Shown here piece by piece: positions 38,227-39,222 of a stretch of DNA of 64,000 nucleotides. The position numbers were made by a program, and so were the translations under genes. The stretch is from Escherichia coli. GTDB lineage: Bacteria > Pseudomonadota > Gammaproteobacteria > Enterobacterales > Enterobacteriaceae. Under the pieces are notes generated by a model. That model saw nothing but the letters and a program-made list of their open reading frames with translations. It had not been told where the DNA came from and searched no databases. The DNA lies in assembly GCF_048403405.1 (NCBI RefSeq), contig NZ_CP183129.1; one strand, given 5' to 3'. The number at the start of each line of letters is the position of its first letter. Within the stretch, counting starts at the first letter, position 1.

Positions 38227-39222
38227 ATGAACGATAACGTTTTGCTCATAGGAGCTTCCGGATTCGTAGGAACCCGACTACTTGAAACGGCAATTGCTGA
38301 CTTTAATATCAAGAACCTGGACAAACAGCAGAGCCACTTTTATCCAGAAATCACACAGATTGGCGATGTTCGTGATCAACAGGCACTCGACCAGGCGTTA
38401 GCCGGTTTTGACACTGTTGTACTACTGGCAGCGGAACACCGCGATGACGTCAGCCCTACTTCTCTCTATTATGATGTCAACGTTCAGGGTACCCGCAATG
38501 TGCTGGCGGCCATGGAAAAAAATGGCGTTAAAAATATCATCTTTACCAGTTCCGTTGCTGTTTATGGTTTGAACAAACACAACCCTGACGAAAACCATCC
38601 ACACGATCCTTTCAACCACTACGGCAAAAGTAAGTGGCAGGCAGAGGAAGTGCTGCGTGAATGGTATAACAAAGCACCAACAGAACGTTCATTAACTATC
38701 ATCCGTCCTACCGTTATCTTCGGTGAACGCAACCGCGGTAACGTCTATAACTTGCTGAAACAGATCGCTGGCGGCAAGTTTATGATGGTGGGCGCAGGGA
38801 CTAACTATAAGTCCATGGCTTATGTTGGAAACATTGTTGAGTTTATCAAGTACAAACTGAAGAATGTTGCCGCAGGTTATGAGGTTTATAACTACGTTGA
38901 TAAGCCAGACCTGAACATGAACCAGTTGGTTGCTGAAGTTGAACAAAGCCTGAACAAAAAGATCCCTTCTATGCACTTGCCTTACCCACTAGGAATGCTG
39001 GGTGGATATTGCTTTGATATCCTGAGCAAAATTACGGGCAAAAAATACGCTGTCAGCTCAGTGCGCGTGAAAAAATTCTGCGCAACAACACAGTTTGACG
39101 CAACGAAAGTGCATTCTTCAGGTTTTGTGGCACCGTATACGCTGTCGCAAGGTCTGGATCGAACACTGCAGTATGAATTCGTTCATGCCAAAAAAGACGA
39201 CATAACGTTTGTTTCTGAGTAA
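38227..39222 (+). CDS. gne: NAD-dependent sugar epimerase (UDP-GlcNAc 4-epimerase type)
   Basis: 331-aa ORF; Rossmann GASGFVG and catalytic YGKSK; sits between wcaM and galF. Confidence 0.7.
   Translation: MNDNVLLIGASGFVGTRLLETAIADFNIKNLDKQQSHFYPEITQIGDVRDQQALDQALAGFDTVVLLAAEHRDDVSPTSLYYDVNVQGTRNVLAAMEKNGVKNIIFTSSVAVYGLNKHNPDENHPHDPFNHYGKSKWQAEEVLREWYNKAPTERSLTIIRPTVIFGERNRGNVYNLLKQIAGGKFMMVGAGTNYKSMAYVGNIVEFIKYKLKNVAAGYEVYNYVDKPDLNMNQLVAEVEQSLNKKIPSMHLPYPLGMLGGYCFDILSKITGKKYAVSSVRVKKFCATTQFDATKVHSSGFVAPYTLSQGLDRTLQYEFVHAKKDDITFVSE

Follow-up and report, generated by a model that had tools for sequence, protein, structure and literature searches.

The DNA analysed here, hereafter the window, is a stretch of 64,000 nucleotides of an Escherichia coli genome (contig NZ_CP183129.1), in which a gene for a predicted epimerase, gnu, is located between wcaM and galF. 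The start of gnu lies 157 bp past the wcaM stop codon and its end 242 bp ahead of galF. [quoted passage not shown]

36675..38069, plus strand: wcaM, which ends the colanic acid operon and flanks gnu on the upstream side
38084..39464: segment of 1381 bp specific to the gnu haplotype, delimited by alignment with the gnu-less locus L003
38094..38121, plus strand: promoter-like site TGGATA-16-TATAAT, some 100 bp ahead of the gnu start codon, a consensus match only (10/12)
38227..39222, plus strand: gnu coding sequence, ATG start, 331 aa, extended short-chain dehydrogenase (SDR), predicted UndPP-GlcNAc 4-epimerase, RefSeq WP_000999466.1
39465..40358, plus strand: galF, downstream flank of gnu
40575..47445, plus strand: O-antigen cluster of the O153/O178 genotype with GT2, ribofuranosyl-transferase homologue, GT2, wzy (frameshifted), GT4 and wzx
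40619..40657, plus strand: JUMPstart/ops element, start of the RfaH-dependent O-antigen operon, Rfam RF01707, 62.4 bits
47904..48671: IS1 element with an exact left inverted repeat (47904-47926) and the InsB ORF (48153..48656)
L003 (NZ_AP039418.1), 2501..2674: wcaM-galF gap without gnu; NZ_CP159639.1 is likewise gnu-less

The gnu ORF is a genuine and intact gene and not a chance reading frame. The opposite strand contains no overlapping ORF of 100 aa or more, and RefSeq annotates the counterpart of gnu at 14158..15153 of the locus from strain ESBLEC_HM52 (L001). The 331-aa protein matches the Pfam families Epimerase (PF01370, E 8.5e-31) and 3Beta_HSD (PF01073, E 3.1e-27). Its residues 9-15 form the NAD-binding Rossmann motif GASGFVG, residues 132-136 the motif YGKSK, and S109, Y132 and K136 correspond in the alignment to the catalytic residues S124, Y149 and K153 of GalE from E. 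coli, so that the catalytic apparatus of extended SDRs (GxxGxxG, Ser, YxxxK) is intact in the protein encoded in the window. The ORF, the YGKSK motif and the flanking genes are all as described in the original prediction of a 331-aa SDR/epimerase with a YGKSK motif between wcaM and galF. Gnu possesses no transmembrane segment, the 19-residue hydropathy maximum of 1.45 being located in the N-terminal Rossmann strand, and the protein would be peripheral at the membrane.

In K-12 MG1655, wcaM is followed by a gap of 174 bp and then by galF with no gene in the gap, in agreement with the original prediction, in which K-12 passes straight from wcaM to galF. Genomes with and without gnu share just 14 bp of sequence past the wcaM stop codon, and homology resumes at the galF start; in between, gnu-negative genomes carry an unrelated segment of 160 bp in place of the 1381-bp gnu segment. 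The alignment with L003 revealed no repeats flanking the gnu segment, and the GC content of gnu (45.1%) is near that of wcaM (47.2%) and galF (51.0%), while the O-antigen genes range from 29 to 35%. An origin of the segment from a mobile element, which we considered, is unsupported because of the missing flanking repeats and the neighbour-like GC content. Around gnu, the plus strand shows no terminator-like site. Since gnu and galF are located upstream of the JUMPstart element, with its ops element at 40646..40656, both lie outside the RfaH-dependent O-antigen operon. Two further Rfam matches, MIR8001 and snoR9 (E of about 0.7-0.9, far under the gathering score), were rejected as chance.

Two additional observations concern these elements. 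When the first glycosyltransferase ORF is begun at 40575, as in our call and in RefSeq, it encloses the JUMPstart RNA and ops; this gene probably begins at the ATG of position 40668 instead. Another exact copy of ops, GGCGGTAGCGT, is present further upstream in the window at 15345..15355 and presumably represents the JUMPstart that serves the colanic acid operon.

We compared the protein with GalE, Gne and other epimerases on the sequence level. Gnu shares 30% identity with K-12 GalE over 299 aa (E 8.5e-19) and 27% with the GalE-like Gne of the O6 cluster (Nissle 1917), the latter only over the N-terminal 161 aa (E 1e-8), while full-length GalE and the O6-cluster Gne share 49% identity. The NCBIfam equivalog model for GalE, TIGR01179, scores 71.4 bits on Gnu compared with a cutoff of 262.3, and no NCBIfam equivalog model attains its cutoff on this protein. 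A search of the PDB yielded no close relative with a solved structure; the best matches (E 2e-17) are an SDR and the sterol enzyme NSDHL (6jkg), with GalE entries following at about 1e-11. The N179 loop, R231 and R292 of GalE are residues which we take to be those that bind the UDP-sugar. Gnu lacks the N179 loop (YFNPVGAH), and opposite R231 and R292 it has Y221 and T288, hence no arginine, whereby the C-terminal alignment is weak and unreliable at such divergence. Judged by its sequence, Gnu is placed outside the GalE/Gne clade. Membership in the Gne class, as initially proposed, is therefore not upheld: the identity to Gne and GalE is 27-30%, the GalE model remains far under its cutoff, and what was found is essentially an epimerase of another class with another substrate.

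GalE and Gne (clade A) resemble Gnu in the extended-SDR fold, the NAD motif, the S-Y-K triad and presumably the oxidation-reduction chemistry at C4, but they act on UDP-sugars whereas the substrate of Gnu is a lipid-linked sugar. They also differ in gene location, as gne is found inside the O-antigen cluster (O6) and galE in galETKM, while gnu is located outside the O-antigen operon, upstream of galF and JUMPstart. Among the strongest family and PDB matches of Gnu are extended SDRs acting on lipids (3-beta-HSD/NSDHL, HpnA and OleD; PF01073, E 3e-27; TIGR03466, E 3e-27; 6jkg, E 2e-17), all of which stay far under the family cutoffs and denote resemblance rather than membership. A hydrophobic, polyprenol-linked substrate would be consistent with this likeness in sequence, which is no proof of it. 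In Yersinia pseudotuberculosis (O3, O6, O7, O10, O15 and others), Gnu belongs to the same clade and has the same proposed function as the E. coli protein, and the presence of its gene correlates absolutely with GalNAc as first sugar; it differs from the E. coli enzyme in about 50% of its amino acids, and its gene lies inside the Yersinia O-antigen cluster (PMC3682973). The UDP-GlcNAcA 4-epimerases GnaB/WbpP (clade B) are SDR 4-epimerases as well; their substrates are N-acetylhexosamine derivatives, and they too once bore the name Gne (PMC3682973). They are set apart from Gnu by their described clade and substrate and by their partner, a UDP-GlcNAc dehydrogenase, and no gene for a UDP-GlcNAc 6-dehydrogenase is present among the ORFs of the O-antigen cluster in the window.

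The closest known system is that of O157:H7. Gnu of the window is identical in 331 of 331 residues to the protein at the wcaM-galF locus of the O157:H7 strain Z1816 (our reference instead of EDL933), where the enzyme, known as Z3206 and assigned to clade D, is encoded at the same position. The flanking intergenic DNA of both loci is 99.0% identical at the nucleotide level, and the sole difference is the downstream O-antigen cluster, O157 in the one and of the O153/O178 genotype in the other. RefSeq names WP_000999466.1 N-acetyl-alpha-D-glucosaminyl-diphospho-ditrans,octacis-undecaprenol 4-epimerase, and the exact sequence is found under the name of UndPP-GlcNAc 4-epimerase on at least 1000 public contigs. 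The segment 38070..39464 is present in 1323 of 5426 complete E. coli genomes searched by megablast; nearly all matches are full length with 95-100% identity, and O157:H7, O55:H7 and O127:H6 strains are among them.

In O157 and O55, the gene located ahead of the cluster was initially assigned gne, and it appears in the older O157/O55 literature as Z3206 or 'gne' (Cunneen 2013, PMC3682973). According to the account of Rush 2010 given there, the O157 enzyme is not active on UDP-GlcNAc and instead epimerises UndPP-GlcNAc, the product of WecA, to UndPP-GalNAc. The clade holding the O157 enzyme was renamed gnu, and the presence or absence of gnu agrees with O-unit chemistry in 104 serogroups (Cunneen 2013, PMC3682973); later work retained the assignment (Liu 2019, PMC7685785; PMC9680116). 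We assign the ORF in the window to gnu, coding for an UndPP-GlcNAc 4-epimerase, with a probability of roughly 0.9, whereby the specificity is taken from secondary literature accounts of the identical O157 protein. Gnu itself is already known and is textbook-level for O-antigen specialists. Since it acts on lipid-linked UndPP-GlcNAc and not on UDP-GlcNAc, no UDP-GalNAc would be supplied, contrary to the role first proposed for the gene. The gne-like reading was right about an SDR 4-epimerase tied to GalNAc in the O antigen and wrong about the enzyme class and substrate.

In the pathway that we propose, WecA, which is encoded elsewhere, would make UndPP-GlcNAc at the cytoplasmic face of the inner membrane. 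Gnu, an NAD-dependent extended SDR that would be either soluble or peripheral, would act on this product. Its catalytic chemistry would be like that of GalE. Following this paradigm, Tyr132 and Lys136 together with the bound NAD would bring about a transient oxidation at C4, and the 4-keto intermediate would present its other face again before the hydride is returned, giving UndPP-GalNAc. The transferases of the cluster would then extend UndPP-GalNAc, Wzx would flip the unit and Wzy would polymerise it.

The O-antigen cluster at 40575..47445 is essentially identical in 76 complete genomes, including SMS-3-5 and CE-O153H30. Its 588-aa ORF at 41491..43257, annotated as 'hypothetical' in RefSeq, matches the ribofuranosyl transferase of PDB entry 7SHG over residues 7-534 (E 4e-14), whereas Pfam gave no match for this ORF, for either wzy fragment or for a 146-aa ORF. 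Ribf is a component of the O unit in O153 as well as in O178, and for both serogroups one glycosyltransferase fewer than expected had been counted (PMC7685785). As its homology suggests, the 588-aa protein probably adds the Ribf of these units, which would explain the missing glycosyltransferase. An O unit made of common hexoses and N-acetylhexosamines, as had been envisaged for this cluster, is thus an incomplete description. The wzx gene at 46267..47445 is an intact ORF of 392 aa, and the same DNA is found in strain ESBLEC_HM52 (L001, 22199..23377), where RefSeq lists a 'partial' flippase pseudogene and a hypothetical protein; this split is probably an annotation artefact. Downstream of wzx, the IS1 element truncates the membrane-protein-like 146-aa ORF (47468..47908), whose stop codon lies at the IS1 junction, and strain ESBLEC_HM52 carries the same IS1.

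The wzy gene of the window (44133..45310) lacks one T of a TTT run near 44834 compared with strain ESBLEC_HM52 and all 60 cluster genomes among the matches listed, which breaks the gene up into two ORFs (238 and 149 aa). This deletion of one nucleotide may be a real frameshift or a sequencing error. A real frameshift would limit attachment to single O units and predicts a semi-rough LPS. Given the frameshift, a polymer may not be made even with an active Gnu.

Genome-based typing is unable to tell O153 from O178 (PMC7874142), and DebRoy 2016 disputes the identity of the O153 and O178 reference clusters, the divergent O153 sequence being KJ755551; the main text of Iguchi 2015 mentions neither serogroup. 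The chemistry of both as used here comprises the counts of N-acetylhexosamines and the Ribf content only. According to Table S2 of Cunneen 2013 (PMC3682973), the main chain of O153 contains two GlcNAc and no GalNAc and that of O178 one GalNAc and one GlcNAc. In the same table, the O178 type strain is entered as negative in the PCR for gnu, and six serogroups carry gnu 'in excess of need', hence the presence of gnu does not always imply its use. From the position of gnu upstream of galF, Liu 2019 (PMC7685785) deduced that the O178 unit starts with GalNAc. In 71 of the 76 genomes with the cluster of the window, gnu, galF and the first transferase are contiguous. Two genomes, BroCaecum-55 and Z226-7, were found with a chimeric query to continue from wcaM directly to galF without gnu, and their cluster is 100% identical to that of the window save for the single-T deletion in wzy. 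Since the window strain is gnu-positive, we infer that its O unit is of the O178 type and initiated by GalNAc. It is conceivable that gnu is the sole genetic difference between a GalNAc-initiated O178 and a GlcNAc-initiated O153 on a shared cluster, a tentative proposal whose chances we put somewhat below even. We found no explicit statement in the literature searched that gnu separates O178 from O153, and specialists may recognise this implicitly.

Two other explanations have to be weighed against an active Gnu that starts the O unit with GalNAc. The gene might encode a Gne-type UDP-GlcNAc 4-epimerase supplying UDP-GalNAc as a donor for WecA or for the glycosyltransferases of the cluster. The protein does look like an SDR 4-epimerase with a YxxxK motif, the original name of the gene was gne, the title of the original 'gne' paper (Wang 2002) speaks of a UDP-GlcNAc C4 epimerase gene, and some members of the 90% cluster of Gnu are still labelled 'UDP-N-acetylglucosamine 4-epimerase' in databases. 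This is, however, difficult to reconcile with the reported lack of UDP-GlcNAc activity of the identical O157 enzyme and with E. coli O86, which needs gnu plus a separate GalE-like gne (PMC3682973). The low identity to GalE/Gne, the score far under the GalE cutoff, the absent N179 loop and, within a weak C-terminal alignment, the lack of arginine at the R231 and R292 positions likewise speak against it, and we regard a Gne-type enzyme as highly improbable.

Alternatively, Gnu could be active and yet a functional passenger without effect on the phenotype, either because the O unit is of the O153 type and initiated by GlcNAc or because no O polymer is made. The six serogroups with excess gnu and the O153 unit with two GlcNAc and no GalNAc (Table S2, PMC3682973) would agree with this, as would the frameshifted wzy and the two gnu-less genomes, from which it follows that the identical cluster is presumably able to work on UndPP-GlcNAc. 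[quoted passage not shown] Moreover, despite the wzy defect a single GalNAc-initiated unit could still be ligated to the core. [quoted passage not shown]

The correct name of the gene alters the predicted pathway, as GalNAc would be made on the lipid carrier and at the first position only; hence gnu implies no pool of UDP-GalNAc, and no internal GalNAc can be deduced from it. The distinction between Gnu and Gne matters for the prediction of O-unit structures from sequence and likewise for glycoengineering, where the choice between both enzymes sets the reducing-end sugar. In genome-based serotyping, gnu may help to tell O153 from O178. Genotyping uses the galF-gnd cluster, which does not include gnu. 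If gnu is indeed what separates the two serogroups, it could resolve their in silico ambiguity, and the majority of the 'O153/O178' strains sequenced (71 of 76 in this set) would be chemically of the O178 type.
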